From sequence record PQ850614.1: a DNA stretch of 64,000 nucleotides. The stretch is one strand, 5' to 3'. A program made the position numbers and the translations under genes. This document shows, piece after piece, positions 1,735 through 63,457 of the stretch. A model generated the notes under the pieces. That model saw only the letters and a program-made list of their open reading frames with translations, made no database searches and was not told the DNA's origin. The first letter of the stretch is position 1, and every line of letters begins with the position of its first letter. Origin of the DNA: Escherichia phage LorandFenyves_Bas91.

Positions 1735-4700
1735 ATGGCGCTGTATCCAATAAAGTCGCTAGGTGCTGTAGGCGTTATCGCTGATCAGGCTCCGACAGAC
1801 TTAGCTCCTAATGCTTTCACTAATGCTATAAATGCTCGATTTGTTGAGCAGAGAGTATTTAAGACGGGGGGCAATGCCCCTCTTTCTTATGTAGACGAAG
1901 ATAAGGATTTAACCCCTCTGTCTTTCGTTTCTATGCCTTTCGATTATTATAGCGCAGGTAATAGCTTTCTTGTTGTAGGTACAGATAAGAAGTTATATAA
2001 ACTGACAGATGAAAGCTTGACTGATATTAGCCGTAAGGTTGCTACAGTCACCAAGAAGGCTTCTGCCTCAATTAAGATTTATCCAGTTGTTTCTCAGATC
2101 GTTCCTAAAGAATCAACTATCTCAATGAACTTCAATCAGACCAAGAATCTAGAGGTTTCTCTTCTCCCTGCCGATGCTAACAATACTGATCTTATTTGGG
2201 AGGTTAGTAATTCATCCTATGGAAGTGTTACGGTAGACCCTAGTGACTCCAAACTTGCTACTCTAACATCTTTTGAGAAAGAGGGTAATCTTGTAGTAAC
2301 TATCTCTACTGCCAATGAATCCGTAGTGGCTCAGATTGCTGTTAATATCATCGATGGTGATTCAGGCATCTTCTTGAGTCAAGATACTGTTACAATTCGT
2401 AAAGGAGGGACTACTACTCTCACGGCTGTTACTGGCAAAACCCCTGTAACTTGGTCCAGCAATAACGCTTCTATTGTATCTGTAACCCCTAACGCCAACT
2501 CTTTAACTGCTGTCATTACAGCGAATGGAGAAGGTAATGTAACAATCACTGCTGATAACGGGACTAAGACTGCTTCTTGTGAGATTGTTTCTATCCCTCA
2601 GATTGATAGTATCTCTTTAAGCCAGTCAGATGTTACTGTGAGTAGAGGTTCTCAGTATATTTTAACTGCCACCCTTTCTCCTGCTAACGCCCCTAATCAA
2701 AACATTACTTGGACCTCTTCTAACCCAAATATTGCAACAGTATCAGGGACTAGCACACAAGGGACAGTAAATGCTTTACTTGCTGGCTTTACTGAGATTA
2801 CAGCTACCACTGAAGAAGGTAATAGAGTTGCTGTCTGTACTGTACGTGTAGATTTAGCTGGAAGGACAATGAGAACAAGTGCTATGGCATTTGCTGCTCC
2901 TGTATCAGAGTCGGTAGAAACTCAAGATGAGGAAGTAGTAACTCCTCCTGAAAGTGAGGAAGTTGTTTATTTTGCTGAGCCTACATCTGGTATAGATACG
3001 TCAGGGATGTATGAAGGTAATAACTTCTATGACTACTCTAACGTGAATGATATTGAAGGTTTTGCAAGAGCTTCTTTACTGGCAACCCCTTTGTCATCTG
3101 TAACCTTAGATATTGTCAGCGCTTCTCTTGATGTTGGTGAAGAGATTGTCATTACAGCCACAGCTTCTCCAGAAGGTGAGTACTCTTATCAGTGGTCTGT
3201 TGATAAAACTGGTTATGTTTCTACAACTTCAGTTACTGGTAAATCTATCAAACTGGTTGCTCTTCGTAAAGGAGATATTAACGTAACATGTACTGTCAGT
3301 CAGATGACTCAGAAAGATTACGATGCTTTTGATGACTATCCTTGGTATCACGCTGTTATCTCTAACTGTGCAGTTGCTACAACTCACTATGAAACTCCTC
3401 AGGTAAAAGAATTCGAATCAGAATACTTTGTAGACCTTCCGGGGTGGGGTGAGCAAACAGTTGTTGATAATGATGGAAACCCTTCAGTCAAGAAGTTTAA
3501 CTGGAAATGTGAGAGAGTGAGATCTTTTAACAACCGTCTTTTTGCCCTGAATATGAGAGAGGCTAATGCTTCTGGTGTTACCACTAACTACCCGCTTCGT
3601 CTTCGTTGGTCTAACTTTGCCAATGAGAACAAGGCTCCTACACTGTGGGATGATTTTGCTTACGATCGTGTTGTGTCTTCGGACTTAGCTTCTAACATCG
3701 TAGGGCAGACTCAGGCTCTAGAGAATGGATATGCTGGTTACATTGATTTAGCTGACTCTAACGGCAGCTTGATTGATATCCTACCTCTTAAAGATTACTT
3801 GTTCGTTTATACAGAGTTTGAAACGTATATAGGTTCTCCGACTAATAACACGTACCAACCTCTAATGTTCAAGAAGCTCTTTAATGACTCTGGTATCCTT
3901 GCTCCTGAGTGTGTGGTTGAAGTAGAAGGTAGTCACTTCGTAGTTACTCAGAACGATGTAATCTTACACAATGGTGCAACCAAGAAGTCAATTGCATCTA
4001 ACCGTGTCAAGAACATGTTGATTAACGAGGTGTGTCTGGTTAACCCTCTAGCAACTCGAGTACACTTGCATCAGGATAAGAAAGAAGTTTGGGTTCTGTA
4101 CGTAGGTCCGGGAGAACCAAAAGAAAGCTTCGCTTGTACTAAAGCTGCTGTATGGAATTATGAGTTTGATACTTGGTCTTTCCGTACTATTCCATATGCT
4201 CAGTGTATCGGTCTTGTTGATCCTCCTGTTTTAGAAAGAGGTCCAATCTGGTCTGACTTCCAAGAAATCACTTGGGATGACCCATCTATTAAAGAACTTG
4301 TTTGGAGAAAGGATGCAACAAACTTCAGACAGAGGGTTACGATAGTAGGTTCGTTCTTGAGGGGATTCTATCAGGTGGATGTAGGTGCTCTTGACTATTT
4401 CTATGACAGGCTAAACGATGTTGTTATAGAGAAGCCTCTGGAAATGAGGTTGGAGAGGACTGGTATAGATTTTGATAATGTGACTAATGAGTGGAATCAG
4501 AAGCATATTAACAGGTTCCGGCCTCAGACAACCGGTTCAGGTATTTACATATTTGAAGCTGGTGGTAGTCAATTCTCAAATGAATATGGACACCCACACA
4601 CATCGAAGACTTATACAATTGGTGTTGACAGGCATGTCTCGGTGAGACTGAACCATCCATACCTTTTCTATAATGTTATAGATAATGATGTTAACAGTAA

Positions 4701-4752
4701 TGCTGCTATCAATGGTTTAACGATAGAGTTTGCTGTTGGCGGGCGGAGATAA
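1735..4752 (+). CDS. tail fibre/adhesin with tandem bacterial Ig-like (Big_2-type) domains
   Basis: AAGGAGG RBS; 1005 aa; several ~80-aa repeats of Big_2 character (e.g. SSNNASIVSVTPNANSLTAVITANGEGNVTITA); distinct C-terminal domain. Confidence 0.75.
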   Translation: MALYPIKSLGAVGVIADQAPTDLAPNAFTNAINARFVEQRVFKTGGNAPLSYVDEDKDLTPLSFVSMPFDYYSAGNSFLVVGTDKKLYKLTDESLTDISRKVATVTKKASASIKIYPVVSQIVPKESTISMNFNQTKNLEVSLLPADANNTDLIWEVSNSSYGSVTVDPSDSKLATLTSFEKEGNLVVTISTANESVVAQIAVNIIDGDSGIFLSQDTVTIRKGGTTTLTAVTGKTPVTWSSNNASIVSVTPNANSLTAVITANGEGNVTITADNGTKTASCEIVSIPQIDSISLSQSDVTVSRGSQYILTATLSPANAPNQNITWTSSNPNIATVSGTSTQGTVNALLAGFTEITATTEEGNRVAVCTVRVDLAGRTMRTSAMAFAAPVSESVETQDEEVVTPPESEEVVYFAEPTSGIDTSGMYEGNNFYDYSNVNDIEGFARASLLATPLSSVTLDIVSASLDVGEEIVITATASPEGEYSYQWSVDKTGYVSTTSVTGKSIKLVALRKGDINVTCTVSQMTQKDYDAFDDYPWYHAVISNCAVATTHYETPQVKEFESEYFVDLPGWGEQTVVDNDGNPSVKKFNWKCERVRSFNNRLFALNMREANASGVTTNYPLRLRWSNFANENKAPTLWDDFAYDRVVSSDLASNIVGQTQALENGYAGYIDLADSNGSLIDILPLKDYLFVYTEFETYIGSPTNNTYQPLMFKKLFNDSGILAPECVVEVEGSHFVVTQNDVILHNGATKKSIASNRVKNMLINEVCLVNPLATRVHLHQDKKEVWVLYVGPGEPKESFACTKAAVWNYEFDTWSFRTIPYAQCIGLVDPPVLERGPIWSDFQEITWDDPSIKELVWRKDATNFRQRVTIVGSFLRGFYQVDVGALDYFYDRLNDVVIEKPLEMRLERTGIDFDNVTNEWNQKHINRFRPQTTGSGIYIFEAGGSQFSNEYGHPHTSKTYTIGVDRHVSVRLNHPYLFYNVIDNDVNSNAAINGLTIEFAVGGRR

Positions 4753-4756
4753 CAAC

Positions 4757-4785
4757 AAGGGGCTTCGTGCCCCTTTTATTGTTTT
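4757..4785 (+). terminator. intrinsic terminator/attenuator hairpin
   Basis: AAGGGGC-TTCGT-GCCCCTT stem-loop followed by TTATTGTTTT, between the tail-fibre gene and the next start. Confidence 0.55.
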
Positions 4786-4795
4786 GGAGGAACTT

Positions 4796-5764
4796 ATGGG
4801 TGCAGGTGGTTTTCGTAAGAATACTGGTCGCAACAACACCACACTCCCGTACAACGTTGGGTTTCTCAATAATGTACAGGACACAGAAACATATAACGTA
4901 GCCGTGTATGATGAATTACAAAAAGTTAGCACAGCTACTAACCAAATGTTCCAAGCTATAGATGAAATTCACGAAGAGATTGATGTTCGTATTAAAGCTC
5001 TTAATGCAATGAATCTACAATTTGATGAGCTTGAGAATAGAATTACTACAGAGATAGAAACAGCTATTGCAGATATCCAAACACAGATGGGGAATCTCTC
5101 CACTGAAGATATTTGGGATAATTCTGTTCAACCTCCTGTAAAATTAGAAAGCACTGTATCTGGCTTTAAAACAAGTATTGAGGGTAACACAACTAAGATT
5201 CAAACGGTAGAAGGTATTGTCAATGACCAAGGTCAAGAGATTGCTTTAGTTCAGACAGAGATTCAAAATATTAATGGAAGCCTATCTCAGTATATGAAGC
5301 TCTCTGAGTATGAAGCTACGTGGGGTGTTAACTCTACAGTAAACGGAAGATATGCTGGGGTCAAGTTAACTAACAACGGAACAAACAGTCAATTCCAAGT
5401 AACAGCTAACAAGTTTATTGTTGGTGATGGCAGCTCTGGTAACACACCTTTTGTGTTTGAGGGTGGTAGGGCTAGAATGGAATTCGCTGACATAAAGAAC
5501 GTCAATATCACAACAGCTCAGATTGCTAACGCTAGAATCCAATGGGCACAGATCGATAACGTATCCATCTCCAATGCTCAGATTCAGAACTTGTCAGCGG
5601 ATAAGATTACTGCTGGCTCTATGTGGGGTTCTAACTGGAGACTTACTGTTGGTGGGGACTTTGTTATGGGTGGCACAGGTGGGGCACAATTGTGGATGAA
5701 TGGTAACAGAATAGACTTCTACGATGGAAGTGGTGCTCTGAGAATCAGGATAGGGAGTTGGTAA
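4796..5764 (+). CDS. tail fibre-like protein (coiled-coil N-terminus, repeat-bearing C-terminus)
   Basis: ATG at 4796 after GGAGG (the ORF track begins at an upstream TTG overlapping the previous gene); IxNAxIQ-type repeats. Confidence 0.6.
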   Translation: MGAGGFRKNTGRNNTTLPYNVGFLNNVQDTETYNVAVYDELQKVSTATNQMFQAIDEIHEEIDVRIKALNAMNLQFDELENRITTEIETAIADIQTQMGNLSTEDIWDNSVQPPVKLESTVSGFKTSIEGNTTKIQTVEGIVNDQGQEIALVQTEIQNINGSLSQYMKLSEYEATWGVNSTVNGRYAGVKLTNNGTNSQFQVTANKFIVGDGSSGNTPFVFEGGRARMEFADIKNVNITTAQIANARIQWAQIDNVSISNAQIQNLSADKITAGSMWGSNWRLTVGGDFVMGGTGGAQLWMNGNRIDFYDGSGALRIRIGSW

Positions 5765-20353: not shown

Positions 20354-21100
20354 TTAGAACGGGCTAGAGTCGTCATCTTCATAAGTAGAAGCTGGTTCTT
20401 TGTCAATCGTAGGGATTGAAGGAGTAGCTTCTTTCTGCTCTGTTTCAGAAGCACGAGTAATTTCACGACCAGCCAGAGGCATGTTCTTAGCGTCATTAGC
20501 TTGAGTAAGCAGGTTGCGCTGGAACGGGAACATCAGTTGATAGGATGCTACGTTCTCATCGGTTTCAGCATACGGTTCGAAAAATACCAGAGGGCTACGA
20601 GCTTCACCAACTGCTGCACGATATTTGGTTGGGATTGGAGAAATGGTTTTGATGGAGTTTTTAACTTCACCAGCTTTGTTAGTGTAAGAGTTAACCAGAA
20701 TGTTAACAGGCTGACCTAACAGCACATCCTTGAACCAAGACAGATCACCTTTCAGTGCTTGAATACTTGGGTCAATCATCTTGCAAAGATCAAGAATACC
20801 AGAGTTCTTAGCTCGTGGGTTTACATCATAACTCTTGAACTGGCAAGCCGGACGTGGTTCTAATGCCTTACCATCGGAATCTTTACCAGTAGCATCAACA
20901 CCAATCAGCTCGAAAGCCAAATCCATACGGAAAGCCGGATTCTTAGGAGTTACTGCTTTGGTCTTCGGGTCAATCCAAGGGTCACGATTGTGAACACCCA
21001 AACCTACTACACGAACGATACGTGCTTCGTATTCACCATCAGGGATTACATCGTAGTTGGATTTACGGGAAGCAGTTGCGATAGTTGGAATCATAGACAT
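20354..21100 (-). CDS. single-stranded DNA-binding protein
   Basis: 248 aa ending in the acidic tail EDDDSSPF (acidic C-terminus ending in Phe, as in SSB and T7 gp2.5). Confidence 0.6.
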   Translation of the reverse strand: MSMIPTIATASRKSNYDVIPDGEYEARIVRVVGLGVHNRDPWIDPKTKAVTPKNPAFRMDLAFELIGVDATGKDSDGKALEPRPACQFKSYDVNPRAKNSGILDLCKMIDPSIQALKGDLSWFKDVLLGQPVNILVNSYTNKAGEVKNSIKTISPIPTKYRAAVGEARSPLVFFEPYAETDENVASYQLMFPFQRNLLTQANDAKNMPLAGREITRASETEQKEATPSIPTIDKEPASTYEDDDSSPF

Positions 21101-21159
21101 ATTTTAATTTCCTTATTTAATTTGAAAGATTGTTGCTCTCTTTGAGCGGTTATGTATAG

Positions 21160-21168
21160 TATACATTA
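21160..21168 (-). promoter_or_regulatory. TAATGTATA motif upstream of SSB
   Basis: Exact 9-mer on the minus strand ~60 nt upstream of the SSB start; a near-copy faces it on the plus strand. Confidence 0.45.
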
Positions 21169-21231
21169 CGCTTATACCGATAAGAGTACTATATAATATA
21201 AGTATCTTTGGTAGTAGATATAACACACTAG

Positions 21232-21240
21232 TAATGTATA
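21232..21240 (+). promoter_or_regulatory. TAATGTATA motif, plus orientation (antisense to neighbouring genes)
   Basis: Exact 9-mer in the 400-bp AT-rich intergenic region upstream of SSB. Confidence 0.35.
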
Positions 21241-21516
21241 TATTGTATAGCTGATAAAGTTATTGCAGGCTTGTATATTGGGCAATTCACAGAATCCCTT
21301 GCAAGTACCGAAGGGCAGGAGCCACCTGCGAGATAAAAATAGAGAATTAAGGAATCCTTGATTTAGGTTGTAGGGACTCCTAGGGACTTTGATTCTCTAT
21401 TTAAAAGAATATTAATTACTTATTACCTAAATAATTAACTAACTTACTTAAACCAAATTCAAGAATAATAGATAAAAAGATTATTCCTAAGAAAGCTAAA
21501 AAGTAAAGGATATAAG

Positions 21517-21699
21517 TTACCATTCAAGTAAACCTTTAAAGTTAGTTTGTTCTACTATCCTCTGATAATGAAGATTAGAATCAGCTTGTTTCTTTAACAT
21601 CTCATTATATTGATCTCTGATAGAGTCTTTATAAACTACAGGTTCTTTAAATACTGAGATCTTCTTTTTCTCAGAGTTCAGAGGTATATTTTCTTTCAT
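21517..21699 (-). CDS. hypothetical small protein
   Basis: 60-aa ORF; overlaps the next gene's 3' end. Confidence 0.3.
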   Translation of the reverse strand: MKENIPLNSEKKKISVFKEPVVYKDSIRDQYNEMLKKQADSNLHYQRIVEQTNFKGLLEW

Positions 21700-22153
21700 A
21701 TTCCACTCTATTTTTAGTTGCTTCTTCTAAAGTATCAAAAGACCCTAAGTACTTAGTTCTACCCTTAATTGAGATGTTTGATATGTATTTACCCTTTCTG
21801 TTTAGATAAACACCTTTTACACCAGAGGTGTTATTAATGTTCAACCCTTTATTCCAAGAGTTTACTTCATTATTAACTTCCCTTAGATTAGAGATAGAGT
21901 CATTTGAAGGGTTTCTATCAATATGGTCTATCTGATCTTCAGGTAAATAACCCTTAGCAGAGTACCAAATCACATGATACCTGTACACTTGATGGCCTTT
22001 AATCCTTATCAGGCATCTTCCGTCTTTTCTGATAGACCCTACTTCCATTCCTTTCCTACATTTTGTCCCGTTATGAACCTTCCAGAAAACTTTCCCAGAA
22101 GATAAATCACAATCAAAATATTTGTCAAGGAGTTCCTCTATCATATCAAACAT
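21671..22153 (-). CDS. HNH homing endonuclease with AP2-like DNA-binding domain
   Basis: YHVIWYSAKGYLPEDQIDHIDRNPSNDSISNLREV (HNH) plus SGVKGVYLNRKGKYISNISIKGRTKYLGSFDTLEEA (AP2-like). Confidence 0.65.
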   Translation of the reverse strand: MFDMIEELLDKYFDCDLSSGKVFWKVHNGTKCRKGMEVGSIRKDGRCLIRIKGHQVYRYHVIWYSAKGYLPEDQIDHIDRNPSNDSISNLREVNNEVNSWNKGLNINNTSGVKGVYLNRKGKYISNISIKGRTKYLGSFDTLEEATKNRVEYERKYTSEL

Positions 22154-54250: not shown

Positions 54251-54512
54251 TAGCTACTCGCAAGTCTTCATTAGCACGAGCAAGGCGTTTAACTTCATGA
54301 TCAAGGCTGATAAGGCGCTTGTTTCTGTCTTCAACTTGCATAATAAGATCGTTGAGTGTTACTTTAACTTTCTCATTATACATCTCATCTACTCGGACAA
54401 GAGATTTATACATTCTCTCCCAGCTTGCTGCTTTGTTTCTTAGGATAATAAATCCTAGAACGCTGATAGTTAAACAGATTACAAAAAGGAATTTATATAC
54501 TTCTAAAGTCAT
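54216..54512 (-). CDS. bitopic membrane protein (N-terminal TMD plus coiled coil)
   Basis: FLFVICLTISVLGFIIL followed by a charged helical segment. Confidence 0.4.
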   Translation of the reverse strand: MTLEVYKFLFVICLTISVLGFIILRNKAASWERMYKSLVRVDEMYNEKVKVTLNDLIMQVEDRNKRLISLDHEVKRLARANEDLRVAIAKQQEINSES

Positions 54513-54711
54513 ATTATTTACCCTTTATCAGAGATTAAAAGTAATATTATTTAAGTAAGTTATATTTAGTAAATTTATTTTCTAAGAAATTTTCAAAGGG
54601 TCTATATACAGAGCATTACCCATAGTCCCAGAATACTGCCATCTTTTTCAATAAATTTACTAAGTGGTTGGTTTATAAAGGAATTTAGTTTGTTAAATCT
54701 GGCACTAGAGA

Positions 54712-55101
54712 TTATTCCCTAGAGCTATTATCGAACACTAAATCACCACAATACATAGGATTGGCATACCATTTTGGCACCCCTTCGCTCTTACTCTGAA
54801 AGTAAGTCCCACTATAAAGCGGAACATAATTCTTCGTAAGGGCACGTTTAGCTAGCCGCTCGCTTTCTCCAATGGCTTGCTTAGTCATCGGATTTTTATC
54901 ACGAATCAGCTTTACATAACGTTTATAAGGTTTCTCCTGTTTTAATAGTACCGAAATCCACTCAAACTGGTTCTTTTGTCTTATCACCTGTTCAGCGGTC
55001 AGTTTTCGTTGGGCCATTCTATTTATCACGGTATCCGCAACTAAAGCCTTACATGCGGTTGGCTGATTCCCTGCCTCATAATAAATAGTCAATGTCAACA
55101 T
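54712..55101 (-). CDS. cell-wall hydrolase (SleB/CwlJ-type domain)
   Basis: LTIYYEAGNQPTACKALVADTVINRMA...NQFEW parallels the IYxEA...VAxVVxNR...QFxxW pattern. Confidence 0.6.
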   Translation of the reverse strand: MLTLTIYYEAGNQPTACKALVADTVINRMAQRKLTAEQVIRQKNQFEWISVLLKQEKPYKRYVKLIRDKNPMTKQAIGESERLAKRALTKNYVPLYSGTYFQSKSEGVPKWYANPMYCGDLVFDNSSRE

Positions 55102-60558: not shown

Positions 60559-61431
60559 TCACTTACTAGCCTTAATACAGTTGGCTAAATTAACGTGAAC
60601 GGTATAAACAGCGTTATCAGCGTTATTGTAAACAGTCGTGGCGATCATCGACTCATTGATCGGGCCATAGCTAACAAGGTTAGTAACGGCTTTAACGTCT
60701 TCATAACGTTGTACAGTGCCGAAAGTCACCATATCCGCATCGTTATCAGTACGCTTAAGCACTAAATCACTGTTAGGCTGATTATCTAACGTTTTAGATT
60801 GAAAGAGAACGCCATCATTAGTAACGTTGCTAAATTTCATCTTTAGCACGATATTATTGCCGTCACTATCCGCACCGTTGCAAATCATCCAACCCTTATT
60901 GATGGAACTAGAGAAGACACTAGCGGCATCAGTTGCAGGAGCAGGACTAGCGATAGCCTTATCAGAAAGAGATGTGACCAGTGCACTAACACCAATAGCT
61001 GCAACCAGTGCATAACTTGCCAGATTAACAGACTTCATAATCTTACTTGCAACAGTAGGCTTGATTGGCTGTTTCTTGTTTTTCTTATTCCATGCTTCAA
61101 CCATGACAGACAAGCGGGATAATTCAGCTTTCACATCGCGGCATGACTCAGGCCAATCCTTCTGATTCCAGCTATCTAAATTTGCTTGAATGTAGCAATT
61201 AATAGCGTCCTGCATATCGGTAAAACCGTTCTCTTTGAACGTGCTTTCATCTTCACACTGTAAAGCGTTCGCAGTAGAGTTAATGATCAAGCAAGCCAGC
61301 ATTACAGAGTTTTTGAATCCTTTACGTGCACTTTCGTTTTCCATCCACGCATCAGGACTACCAACGGTTAAGCCTAAAGAGGAAAGGCTTTCGTTTGCTT
61401 TGTTCAAGTGGTTAATTGCTACTTTAGACAT
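60559..61431 (-). CDS. bitopic membrane protein (cytoplasmic N-domain, one TMD, periplasmic C-domain); first early gene
   Basis: AAGGAA RBS; TMD SYALVAAIGVSALVTSL; sigma70-type promoter ~40 nt upstream. Confidence 0.5.
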   Translation of the reverse strand: MSKVAINHLNKANESLSSLGLTVGSPDAWMENESARKGFKNSVMLACLIINSTANALQCEDESTFKENGFTDMQDAINCYIQANLDSWNQKDWPESCRDVKAELSRLSVMVEAWNKKNKKQPIKPTVASKIMKSVNLASYALVAAIGVSALVTSLSDKAIASPAPATDAASVFSSSINKGWMICNGADSDGNNIVLKMKFSNVTNDGVLFQSKTLDNQPNSDLVLKRTDNDADMVTFGTVQRYEDVKAVTNLVSYGPINESMIATTVYNNADNAVYTVHVNLANCIKASK

Positions 61432-61475
61432 TTGATATTCCTTCTGGTTGATGAAAACTACAAACTACACTCGCA

Positions 61476-61503
61476 ACTATATATTAAAGGAAAAGGCTGT
61501 CAA
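61476..61503 (-). promoter_or_regulatory. sigma70-type promoter (TTGACA-N16-TATAGT)
   Basis: Minus strand reads GAAAATAAATGG-TTGACA-GCCTTTTCCTTTAATA-TATAGT; shares GGTTGACAGC with the 58462 promoter. Confidence 0.55.
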
Positions 61504-61620
61504 CCATTTATTTTCTAACTTTCTTGCATCCTACTGAAAACTAAAGGAATTTAATTTACTAAACTTTCTATACTCAGGGTATCAGCTTACTAGCTATTGT
61601 TACTTTATAACACCAATTCT

Positions 61621-62070
61621 ACGGGCAGCAGACCAACAGACCAGGACACGGGGAGCATACAACCGCAGGACAGACCACGGGGAAATATAGCAAGATAGTG
61701 CGGTAATAATATACCACTTAAATAATTGTATAACTCAAACATCAAAGACGTTCGTACTTCGTACTCACAAAGGCACGCTGAAAAAGAAAGTAATAAAAGA
61801 AACAATTAAAAGAAATACAATCATCCACTTAATTAATACATATATCATTATTGCACTCATAATCATTACTATTGAAACTATTATCAACGTAACTATGGGG
61901 AGCTGAACGGTAACAATACGGTATTATTAGACCTGTTATTATCACGCCTTAACAGACCGTTATCAGAGTATAGCCTTTCTCTCACTCTTTAAAGGGGAAC
62001 TAAATAAACGGGTAGCTAATGTATTGGGTAGTATACACGGGGAAATAATTACGGGGAGTAGGCACGGGGA
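61621..62070 (+). repeat. array of direct heptamer repeats (C/T)ACGGGGA(A/G)
   Basis: Exact ACGGGGA at ~61648, 61677, 62037, 62051, 62064 (and 62294), all same orientation, plus degenerate copies. Confidence 0.65.
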
Positions 62071-62521
62071 ACGCTGGAACGTTGAAAGGGAAGGTAAAGG
62101 CATTGCCAATAACCCTTTTTTAAATGAGGACTCCCCCTTTTTAGGAAACGCGCGGCGAGCGGCTAGCCCCATTAGGTCAAATCAGAATTTTAAACTCTTA
62201 TATATAAGGTTGAAAGAGAACTTATGTGGAAAATTAAGTTAATCATTAAGCAATTCAAATGTGATCATGAGTACTATCGGATACGCAAAGCTTACGGGGA
62301 TGAAAGAGTTCACACCCTTTATAAGTCCACTTGGAGATGTAGTAAATGTGGTAAGCTTAAACACAGCACATGGATGGATAGGCCTTAACGTGACATGGCC
62401 TTTATGGGGGTGCCTTTATGACAAGCCCTTTACTTCAGCGTACACGGGTTGTTGGTATGGGGTGGCCTTTACGGGTTAGATATGCCTAGCCCTTTATACT
62501 CTTATTCAGAGGAGAAGAATT

Positions 62522-62776
62522 ATGAATTTAGTATTAGACTTTCTATCAGAGATGGTGCCTCGGTTTAGAACGGAGACATACGCTTTCGTGGTCAATAGTG
62601 ACTCTGAAGAAGGGATGGAAGCTACATGCTTAGGTCGTCTTGTTGATTTAGATGATGAAACAGATTTCGATATTACAATTGATGTAAGTAGTTTTGGTTG
62701 GCTCTTCTTCAGAGCATTCCGCACTTACAGAAAAGAAACATACAAAGATTACAGCAAGGGAGATACAAATGAATAA
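62522..62776 (+). CDS. small acidic protein
   Basis: GGAGAAG RBS; 84 aa, D/E-rich. Confidence 0.45.
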   Translation: MNLVLDFLSEMVPRFRTETYAFVVNSDSEEGMEATCLGRLVDLDDETDFDITIDVSSFGWLFFRAFRTYRKETYKDYSKGDTNE

Positions 62777-63401: not shown

Positions 63402-63457
63402 TATTTGCCTCCGTTGGGAGGCTTTTTGTGTTGTTGATAATGTAGAAGGAGTATAAA

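Follow-up and report, generated by a model that had tools for sequence, protein, structure and literature searches.

Six copies of the heptamer ACGGGGA lie in one orientation at the divergent region of the genome of Escherichia phage LorandFenyves_Bas91 (GenBank accession number PQ850614.1), raising the question of whether such a cluster marks the physical end of the genome, a packaging signal or a replication origin. We addressed this question in the whole stretch of 64,000 nucleotides analysed here (referred to below as the window) and in the genomes of related phages.

Distribution of the heptamers

A first, sequence-only reading of this DNA had counted at least six copies of ACGGGGA on one strand within about 650 bp. 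We found exactly six, all on the plus strand and starting at positions 61648, 61677, 62037, 62051, 62064 and 62294, whereas no copy was found on either strand in the rest of the window, outside 61648-62300. The total is unremarkable when compared with the 2.6 copies expected window-wide; it is the clustering that is remarkable. The underlying motif is A[CT]GGG[GT]A, and between positions 61600 and 62500 its core, A[CT]GGG, was present 13 times on the plus strand and once on the minus strand, compared with 0.94 expected per strand (Poisson P ~3e-11, a value that is only indicative, since the motif was chosen after inspecting the sequence). Base composition is not the cause of this excess, because ACGGG outnumbered its same-composition anagrams by a factor of 4-25 and the G/C skew of the region was just 0.026.

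The motif copies fall into several groups (Table 1). The three members of the upstream, or right-end, array are situated 290-350 nt left of the terminal repeat described below, in the right-end unique region and just beyond a strong leftward promoter, and those at 61648 and 61677 are each contained in an 18-nt unit, CAGACC..ACGGGGA (family D1). Sites 2 to 4 are three close ACGGGGA copies inside the terminal repeat, and their spacings of 14 and 13 bp agree with the 13-14 bp given for them previously. The sixth ACGGGGA (62294-62300) is located inside the gene-1 homologue, where it forms part of the codons for AYGDE; it is retained in Kuravirus, Bas93, Bas89 and 4E8 but is missing from the SU7 clade. 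Tandem Repeats Finder left the arrays undetected, reporting just three trivial short repeats, and no known RNA family of Rfam was matched within 61300-62700.

Table 1. Positions of the repeats and neighbouring features in the window
Feature	Position	Strand	Remarks
Leftward sigma-70-type early promoter, TTGACA-16-TATAGT	61476..61503	-	11/12 consensus matches; putative function
Upstream (right-end) array: ACGGGCA 61621, ACGGGGA 61648, ACGGGGA 61677	61621..61683	+	Spacings 27 and 29 bp
AT-rich spacer between the two arrays	61685..61884		27% G+C; third most AT-rich 200 bp in the window
Lone ATGGGGA	61895..61901	+	77 nt left of terminal repeat; conserved context aaactATGGGG
GCCTTAAC box	61946..61953	+	19-26 nt left of left cut site; conserved in relatives
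Direct terminal repeat (DTR), 193 bp	61972..62164	+	Single copy in this permuted assembly; termini by homology
Site 1, ACGGGTA	62008..62014	+	Terminal-repeat position 37
Sites 2-4, ACGGGGA at 62037, 62051 and 62064	62037..62070	+	Repeat positions 66, 80 and 93
Most conserved terminal-repeat block, CCCTTTTTTAAATGAGGACTCCCCCTTTTTAGG	62113..62145	+	Includes core TGAGGACTCCCC
Gene-1 homologue, 54 aa	62224..62388	+	C-x-H...C-x-x-C pattern; phrog_7696
Six GCC(C)TT(T/A)A boxes: 62382, 62398, 62412, 62425, 62465, 62489	62382..62497	+	0.11 expected
Putative small terminase subunit (TerS candidate), 157 aa	63458..63931	+	Directly before large terminase in relatives

Location of the arrays at the genome ends

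About 95 GenBank phages matched the flagged region, nearly all of them Escherichia/Shigella podophages of the phiEco32 group (Gordonclarkvirinae, Kuravirus and neighbours), and the replication module was 98% identical to those of CHD5UKE1 and SU10. The window is the genome of a Kuravirus (phiEco32-like) podophage in a circularly permuted assembly with one copy of the terminal repeat, since the phiEco32 ends and the CCCTTTTTTA repeat described in SU10 map internally. Specifically, 61972-62164 aligned end to end with positions 1-193 of phiEco32 (94% identity), a phage whose 193-bp direct terminal repeats have been experimentally determined; concordant termini were reported for SU10 (read drop-off, blunt ends), Paul (PhageTerm) and YF01 (whole-genome nanopore reads) (PMC4281155, PMC9965538). 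Position 61973 aligned to base 2 of the phiEco32, SU10, Paul, YF01, WFI101126, CHD5UKE1 and IME267 records, at least seven distinct records thus being deposited from the same start base (61972 in the window). By homology, the left and right termini of the virion DNA would be 61972 and 62164, respectively. The context of the cut at both ends was (C/A)T before the cut and AG(C/G)C after it, and the repeat boundaries were conserved across clades, with exact repeats bearing the same boundary words verified in 4E8 (206 bp) and NC-B (250 bp).

Because copies sit inside and beside the 193-bp terminal repeat, the ACGGGGA words, judged by homology, mark the physical genome end. The sequence-only reading had proposed such a genome-end signature, which the mapping of the phiEco32 left end to 61972 and of the repeat end to 62164 bears out; its placement of the array beside the terminal repeat holds for the upstream array, which is outside, but not for the tight triple array, which is inside.

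From gene orientation and GC skew, genes are on the minus strand up to 61431 and on the plus strand from 62224, and the region containing the arrays is therefore an 800-bp divergent non-coding stretch. A gene-128 homologue (60559-61431) is located to the left of the terminal repeat and homologues of genes 1, 4, 5 and 6 to the right. The leftward promoter precedes the gene-128 homologue, at the inner edge of the non-coding right-end region, and a promoter is annotated at the homologous place in the 4E8 record. As for an early promoter just downstream of the array, which had also been claimed, our consensus scan called none, although one is predicted there in the records of, and papers on, related phages.

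Two further elements of the region are conserved. In the terminal repeat, the core TGAGGACTCCCC (62125-62136) begins 40 nt ahead of the right terminus and is likely the right-end maturation signal; the surrounding 62113-62145 block also holds the CCCTTTTTTA-N10-CCCTTTTTTA repeat reported 21 nt from the terminal-repeat end (PMC4281155) and the sequences corresponding to the terminal-repeat region 130-170, reported as conserved (PMC9965538). In the AT-rich spacer, an alignment of 10 genomes revealed a palindrome-like block, GGTAATAATATACC (61702-61715), and an invariant 15-mer, ACGCTGAAAAAGAAA (61775-61789). Scanning IMG/VR with the 15-mer gave 31 loci, the only genuine ones being those of phiEco32 and of a single relative (L032). 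When we looked for hijacking of the signal by satellites or plasmids, neither 5,426 E. coli genomes nor the PLSDB plasmids contained a match to the terminal repeat, a result that speaks neither for nor against hijacking.

A second repeat family to the right of the terminal repeat

The sequence-only reading had also noted five repeats of GCCTTTA(T/C)GGGG filling a 72-aa ORF. Of the 12-mer GCCTTTAYGGGG, only one exact copy (62398) and one with a single mismatch (62465) were found; what does recur is a shorter box, GCC(C)TT(T/A)A, present six times (Table 1). These boxes are partly on a 13-14 bp lattice and are interleaved with A[CT]GGG cores at 62404, 62444, 62457 and 62471, four of the six boxes abutting a core. 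The cluster, which comprises repeat families D5, D6 and D10, is situated in the variable early region that separates genes 1 and 4, and homologous boxes are present ahead of genes 2 and 4 in phiEco32. The GCCTTAAC box near the left cut site belongs to the same family. The ORF itself is present (62261-62479) but is probably not a gene, as it overlaps the conserved gene-1 homologue in a different frame.

Conservation in related phages

We compared 15 genomes representing four clades, namely Kuravirus, Bas93, the EP335/Bas89/4E8 group and the SU7-like group (including NC-B). The array was found in all 15. The upstream array was represented by 2-7 copies lying 290-460 nt left of the terminal repeat, and every genome had further motif copies among the downstream boxes. 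Altogether, 193 A[CT]GGG cores were on the plus strand versus 5 on the minus strand.

Two sites inside the terminal repeat were invariantly placed. The ACGGG core of site 1 was found at repeat position 37, and A[CT]GGG of site 2 at position 66 or 67, in 15/15 genomes, with the sites starting 36 nt and 65-66 nt, respectively, inside the left terminus; the core of site 1 was invariant and is recognisable even in distant relatives. The 36 nt preceding site 1 have been largely rewritten between clades, with zero indels. Sites 3 and 4, on the other hand, differed between clades in number, flavour and spacing, and the repeats were 193, 205-206 or 249-250 bp long, with the length differences confined to the segment from site 2 to the right-hand core. 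In the left 125 nt, counting ungapped columns only, invariance was seen at 58% of the motif positions versus 19% of the others (Mann-Whitney P = 0.008), and conservation was confined to a heptamer core of 5-7 bp, the flanks not being conserved. These comparisons indicate that the A[CT]GGG cores are under purifying selection.

Spacing between neighbouring copies was quantised, with steps of about 14.5 and 29 bp: over the 15 genomes, 34 spacings were 12-16 bp and 44 were 27-32 bp, with only 3 at 17-26 bp, although, the genomes being related, these counts amount to closer to 20 independent observations. The motif came in clade-specific flavours: Kuravirus has ACGGGGA, the SU7 group ATGGGTA, and the 4E8 group a mixture. 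In distant relatives with genomes of 88-100 kb and a TerS candidate of 63-75% identity, the TGAGGACTCCCC block was exact, sites 1 and 2 persisted (aaatACGGGTA and tttatACGGGAT), and the upstream array persisted in one lineage.

Neither the A[CT]GGG[GT]A arrays nor the fixed offsets of their sites, nor the array upstream of the repeat, are mentioned in the papers that we consulted, which leave aside the original phiEco32 ones (PMC2587145, PMC3275717).

A candidate small terminase

The TerS candidate is encoded 1.3 kb downstream. Its homologue in YF01 was assigned as a small terminase by HHpred (PMC9965538), and when we searched PDB with a profile of 45 homologues, the two best matches were small terminases, 7joq (E 0.003) and that of PaP3, 6w7t (E 0.04), the matches spanning the oligomerisation core only. 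A search of PDB with the single sequence gave no match, Pfam gave nothing significant, and with an AlphaFold model of pLDDT 69, Foldseek ranked PaP3 TerS just 24th. We consider this protein to be the leading candidate, and the most plausible one, for a reader of the terminal-repeat signals. Another candidate binder, the zinc-ribbon-like protein of gene 1, was set aside; its sequence types do not follow the flavour of the motif, NJ01 and 4E8 sharing a type yet differing in their motif mix.

Across lineages, no covariation was found between the TerS candidate and the flavour of the motif. The protein is nearly identical in Kuravirus (P0008) and the SU7 clade (P0038), whereas their repeats are ACGGGGA and ATGGGTA, respectively; since the protein is virtually the same despite the difference in flavour, covariation singles out no role for it. 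Were the heptamers read by this protein, recognition could, from this comparison, be through the A[CT]GGG core common to both flavours.

Possible functions of the repeats

The reading that we favour, to which we would give somewhat less than an even chance, is that the heptamers act in cis as repeats recognised by a protein for the maturation of concatemers and their packaging, where binding, binder and purpose are what we infer. In replicating DNA, one copy of the 193-bp terminal repeat would lie between successive genomes, and it would be cut at both edges and duplicated, leaving a copy at each end of the virion DNA. A protein oligomer, most plausibly of a small-terminase-like protein, may assemble head to tail on the same-strand A[CT]GGG cores along the lattice of about 14.5 bp. 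Sites 1 and 2 would then serve as a ruler, positioning the left-end cut 36 and 65 nt away, and the TGAGGACTCCCC block would position the right-end cut, while cooperative loading or wrapping may be assisted by the extra copies within the repeat, by the second array, some 300 nt further left, and by the right-hand boxes that carry the motif. The fixed offsets, conservation, strict orientation and lattice point to a regular protein array marking the junction, of which the quantised spacings would be expected. The role in maturation is further consistent with the position of the array in and beside a terminal repeat at whose exact first base, 61972, deposited genomes begin, with the adjoining of the TerS-like gene to the large terminase gene, with the persistence of sites 1 and 2 and of the upstream array where the TerS candidate is only 63-75% identical, and with the analogous same-strand lattices in the unrelated exact-DTR phages T7 and SP6. 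Against it are the constancy of the TerS candidate across the change of flavour, and the finding that its conservation is tracked best by the TGAGGACTCCCC block, not by the heptamers. In addition, a 14.5-bp lattice does not match the spacing of about one helical turn between HTH domains round small-terminase rings (PMC4737164), and in LUZ24, a phage from the clade of the structural homologue of the TerS candidate, the ends showed no array above shuffle level.

Could the repeats belong instead to a replication origin? Iterons bound by a phage initiator or primase-helicase, with the same-strand arrays flanking an AT-rich unwinding region, would start replication near the genome end, and direct repeats (61621-61683 and 62008-62070) do occur on both sides of the AT-rich spacer, which holds invariant blocks; the same-strand orientation would also suit single-stranded recognition. 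Typical iterons, however, are 17-22 bp long, phased with the DNA helix and often accompanied by DnaA boxes, whereas the repeats described here have cores of 5-7 bp on a 14.5-bp lattice. No DnaA box was found in 61016-62224 allowing one mismatch, boxes being at chance level window-wide; no recognisable initiator gene adjoins the region; and two places in the genome are more AT-rich than the spacer. An origin would also leave unexplained why site 1 still starts exactly 36 nt from the terminus even though the preceding sequence has changed. We therefore regard an origin as improbable.

A link to transcription seems doubtful to us as well. On this view, a phage regulator would bind the repeats, or RNA polymerase would pause at them; this would govern the two divergent early promoters or else tie maturation to late transcription across the junction, as happens in T7, where pausing of the polymerase at the concatemer junction initiates maturation (PMC3276506). 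The region does lie between the strong leftward promoter and a rightward early promoter predicted in the 4E8 record and in published work (PMC4281155), but the arrays are 105-180 bp from either promoter, and their orientation is constant whatever the direction of the promoter. Directly after the upstream array, three other clades and distant relatives have TATAATGTA(T/A), which resembles the tAATGTATA of promoters used by the phage sigma factor gp36 (consensus from PMC4281155); this element is absent there in Kuravirus, the window included. A related sequence, TAATGTATT, is present at 62017-62025, inside the terminal repeat, but matches to the gp36 consensus were at chance level window-wide, and none of the six mapped gp36-dependent promoters of phiEco32 is located there (PMC8948821). 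We rejected a gp36 promoter in the repeat, TAATGTATT being one of 20 chance-level near-matches, with TAATGAAT in its place in phiEco32.

The repeats might also act at the physical end of the mature linear DNA rather than in cutting, for example by contacting portal, tail or ejection proteins or staging the entry of the genome. Sites 1 and 2 are at a fixed distance from the terminus, and the leftward early promoter is about 660 bp from the right end, comparable to the A1-A3 promoters, 500-750 bp from the left end of T7. Such handling of the ends is in our view quite improbable; neither the downstream boxes nor the upstream array, which is some 480-540 nt away from the right end, keeps a fixed distance to either end. 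Least credible, and in our view very nearly negligible, is that the repeats are functionless relics of local duplication or slippage: copy number and flavour do vary by clade, and neighbouring copies do share longer units, such as those of 18-19 nt in families D1 and D3, which local duplication would produce, but the cores are conserved over four clades and distant relatives while the spacers change, and neither the strand bias of 193 to 5 nor the quantised spacing fits.

Three other candidates were discarded. A G-quadruplex was rejected because the pattern of G-runs is not conserved, the runs being 9-17 nt apart in Kuravirus but more than 25 nt apart and GGG only in the SU7 clade. An RNA sponge of the CsrA type, with GGA cores, does not fit the ATGGGTA clade, which is without GGA. 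Strand-specific nick sites of the T5, phiKMV and tf type, which are dispersed along the genome, are unlikely, as all exact copies here are within 650 bp.

The phiEco32 group, with about 100 sequenced relatives, known termini and two invariantly placed sites, together with variable extra copies and a clade-wide change of flavour, represents a clean natural experiment, and the role of the array is therefore directly testable. The array signature also locates the true ends in the many Kuravirus-like records deposited in permuted or 'circular' form, and defines the cis-elements that have to be retained when therapeutic phages of this group are engineered.

Comparison with known systems

The sequence-only reading had likened the array to the short repeats beside the terminal repeats of T7-like genomes, an analogy that is right at the level of architecture, since the ends of both T7 and SP6 show same-strand lattices. 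When we examined the T7 ends directly, 13 exact copies of CCTAAAG were found on one strand (13 vs 0) in and around the 160-bp repeat: two to the left, three inside (positions 17, 41 and 60) and eight to the right, with spacings of 13 and 25-26 bp. T7 and the phage studied here thus share exact one-strand heptamers left of, inside and right of the terminal repeat, quantised spacing (about 14.5 and 29 bp here), and the setting of an exact-DTR enterobacterial podophage whose early promoters lie within several hundred bp of the end. They differ in that most T7 copies are to the right of the repeat, whereas in our phage the best conserved copies occupy positions within the repeat that are fixed relative to the left terminus, and a second array is situated outside it, about 300 nt to its left. 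They differ also in transcription, T7 using its own RNA polymerase and our phage the host polymerase with a phage sigma factor. As the words (A[CT]GGG[GT]A and CCTAAAG) and the phage families (Gordonclarkvirinae and Autographiviridae) are unrelated, the likeness is one of analogy and not homology, and common descent with the T7 arrays is not supported, no sequence homology being found between the motifs. We know of no established function for the T7 arrays. SP6 contained 14 same-strand copies of CTTAGT versus 0 on the other strand, on a lattice of 11-12 bp (also 22 bp) around its 174-bp terminal repeat, but with only one copy inside the repeat, unlike the phiEco32 group, to which SP6 is unrelated in both motif sequence and phage family.

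Small terminases are known to recognise repeats in other phages, such as the R sites of lambda cosB, for which binding has been demonstrated, and the pac hexamers of P1. These repeats, together with SPP1 pac, likewise consist of clusters of short words beside the cut, with the small-terminase gene close by, although small-terminase binding is contested for SPP1/SF6 (PMC4737164). Lambda, SPP1 and P1 use a single cut, of the cos or headful type, whereas here two cuts 193 bp apart, as judged from the sequence, would generate the terminal repeat.

The arrays of the phiEco32 group are apparently an undescribed addition to the junction repeat arrays of the T7 type, one whose comparative signatures are unusually clear. 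Packaging with DTRs is the least understood packaging strategy (PMC13595956), and it is conceivable, though on balance unlikely, that same-strand words on a 12-15 bp lattice are a general cis-element to which the exact-DTR phages T7, SP6 and the phiEco32 group have converged. Such an element may represent the missing recognition or pausing signal that directs the two staggered cuts and the duplication of the repeat, and the first site, through its constant 36-nt offset, would then act as the molecular ruler for the left cut in the phiEco32 group.

Terminal-repeat edges and conserved non-coding elements

Both edges of the terminal repeat (the 193-bp direct repeat) were found to share the context ...(C/A)T|AG(C/G)C, and in many relatives the palindrome GCT|AGC is present at each edge. 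This shared context would fit one nuclease specificity making both cuts, and would also be consistent with the report of blunt ends in SU10. The right-end non-coding region contains two further elements, the 15-mer ACGCTGAAAAAGAAA, which was identical in 10 of the 10 aligned genomes, representing four clades, and a palindrome-like GGTAAT..ATTACC element, GGTAATAATATACC in the window, which was also kept among the aligned genomes.

Positions of the sequence features in the window
Feature	Position	Strand	Remark
AT-rich stretches	21081-21804, 54447-54715		20-25% G+C
GGTAAT..ATTACC element	61702-61715		right-end non-coding region
ACGCTGAAAAAGAAA	61775-61789		right-end non-coding region
Terminal-repeat edges	61965-61979, 62157-62171
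TAATGTATT	62017-62025
Gene-1 homologue	62224-62388	+	54-aa protein
TAATGTAGA	63438-63446

Early region

The gene-1 homologue, whose product has a zinc-ribbon-like C-x-H...C-x-x-C pattern, is conserved beside the terminal repeat in all clades; the sixth ACGGGGA heptamer is formed by its AYGDE codons, the third positions of which are kept in most clades. Genes 2 and 3 of phiEco32 are missing from the window (62389-62521 versus 420-697 in locus L003). GCCTTTA-type boxes, followed by ...TTTAT(A/G)(C/T)CT..TCAGAGG, are repeated ahead of each small early gene and, because of this recurrence, may represent promoter/regulatory cassettes or, alternatively, points at which genes are gained and lost by recombination.

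Distant relatives and AT-rich stretches

At the equivalent place, the relatives of 88-100 kb (L048-L053) have a divergent non-coding gap of 1.7-3 kb, at about 3100-5000 in each locus. An exact TGAGGACTCCCC block lies about 100-150 nt upstream of the first rightward gene in L048-L051, and was absent from the equivalent gap in L052 and L053. In one distant relative, the portal gene is split by a GIY-YIG homing-endonuclease gene (L049, 9722-10243). Candidate promoter or origin regions are also seen in the two stretches with the highest AT content in the window; the first contains three exact TAATGTATA elements (at 21160, 21232 and, nearby, 21150-21249).

Promoter-like elements and comparison with known systems

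The upstream array (same-strand A[CT]GGG[GT]A copies left of the terminal repeat) of the non-Kuravirus clades and of distant relatives is terminated by TATAATGTA(T/A), oriented towards the genome end and located immediately right of the array in L009, L044/L045, L046/L047, L010-L012 and L048-L049. No TATAATGTA(T/A) was found right of the array in the window, where TAATGTATT lies inside the terminal repeat instead. TAATGTAGA, 12 nt 5' of the start of the TerS candidate (putative small terminase subunit), corresponds in position to the mapped gp36-dependent promoter that precedes phiEco32 gene 6 (PMC8948821).

In SP6, 14 CTTAGT copies lie on one strand around the 174-bp terminal repeat. Five of these copies, 86-134 nt right of the repeat, are arranged as a perfect 12-bp ladder. 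The TATAATGTA(T/A) of the relatives is similar to the tAATGTATA element of promoters dependent on gp36, the phage sigma factor of phiEco32, and is reminiscent of T7 phiOR.
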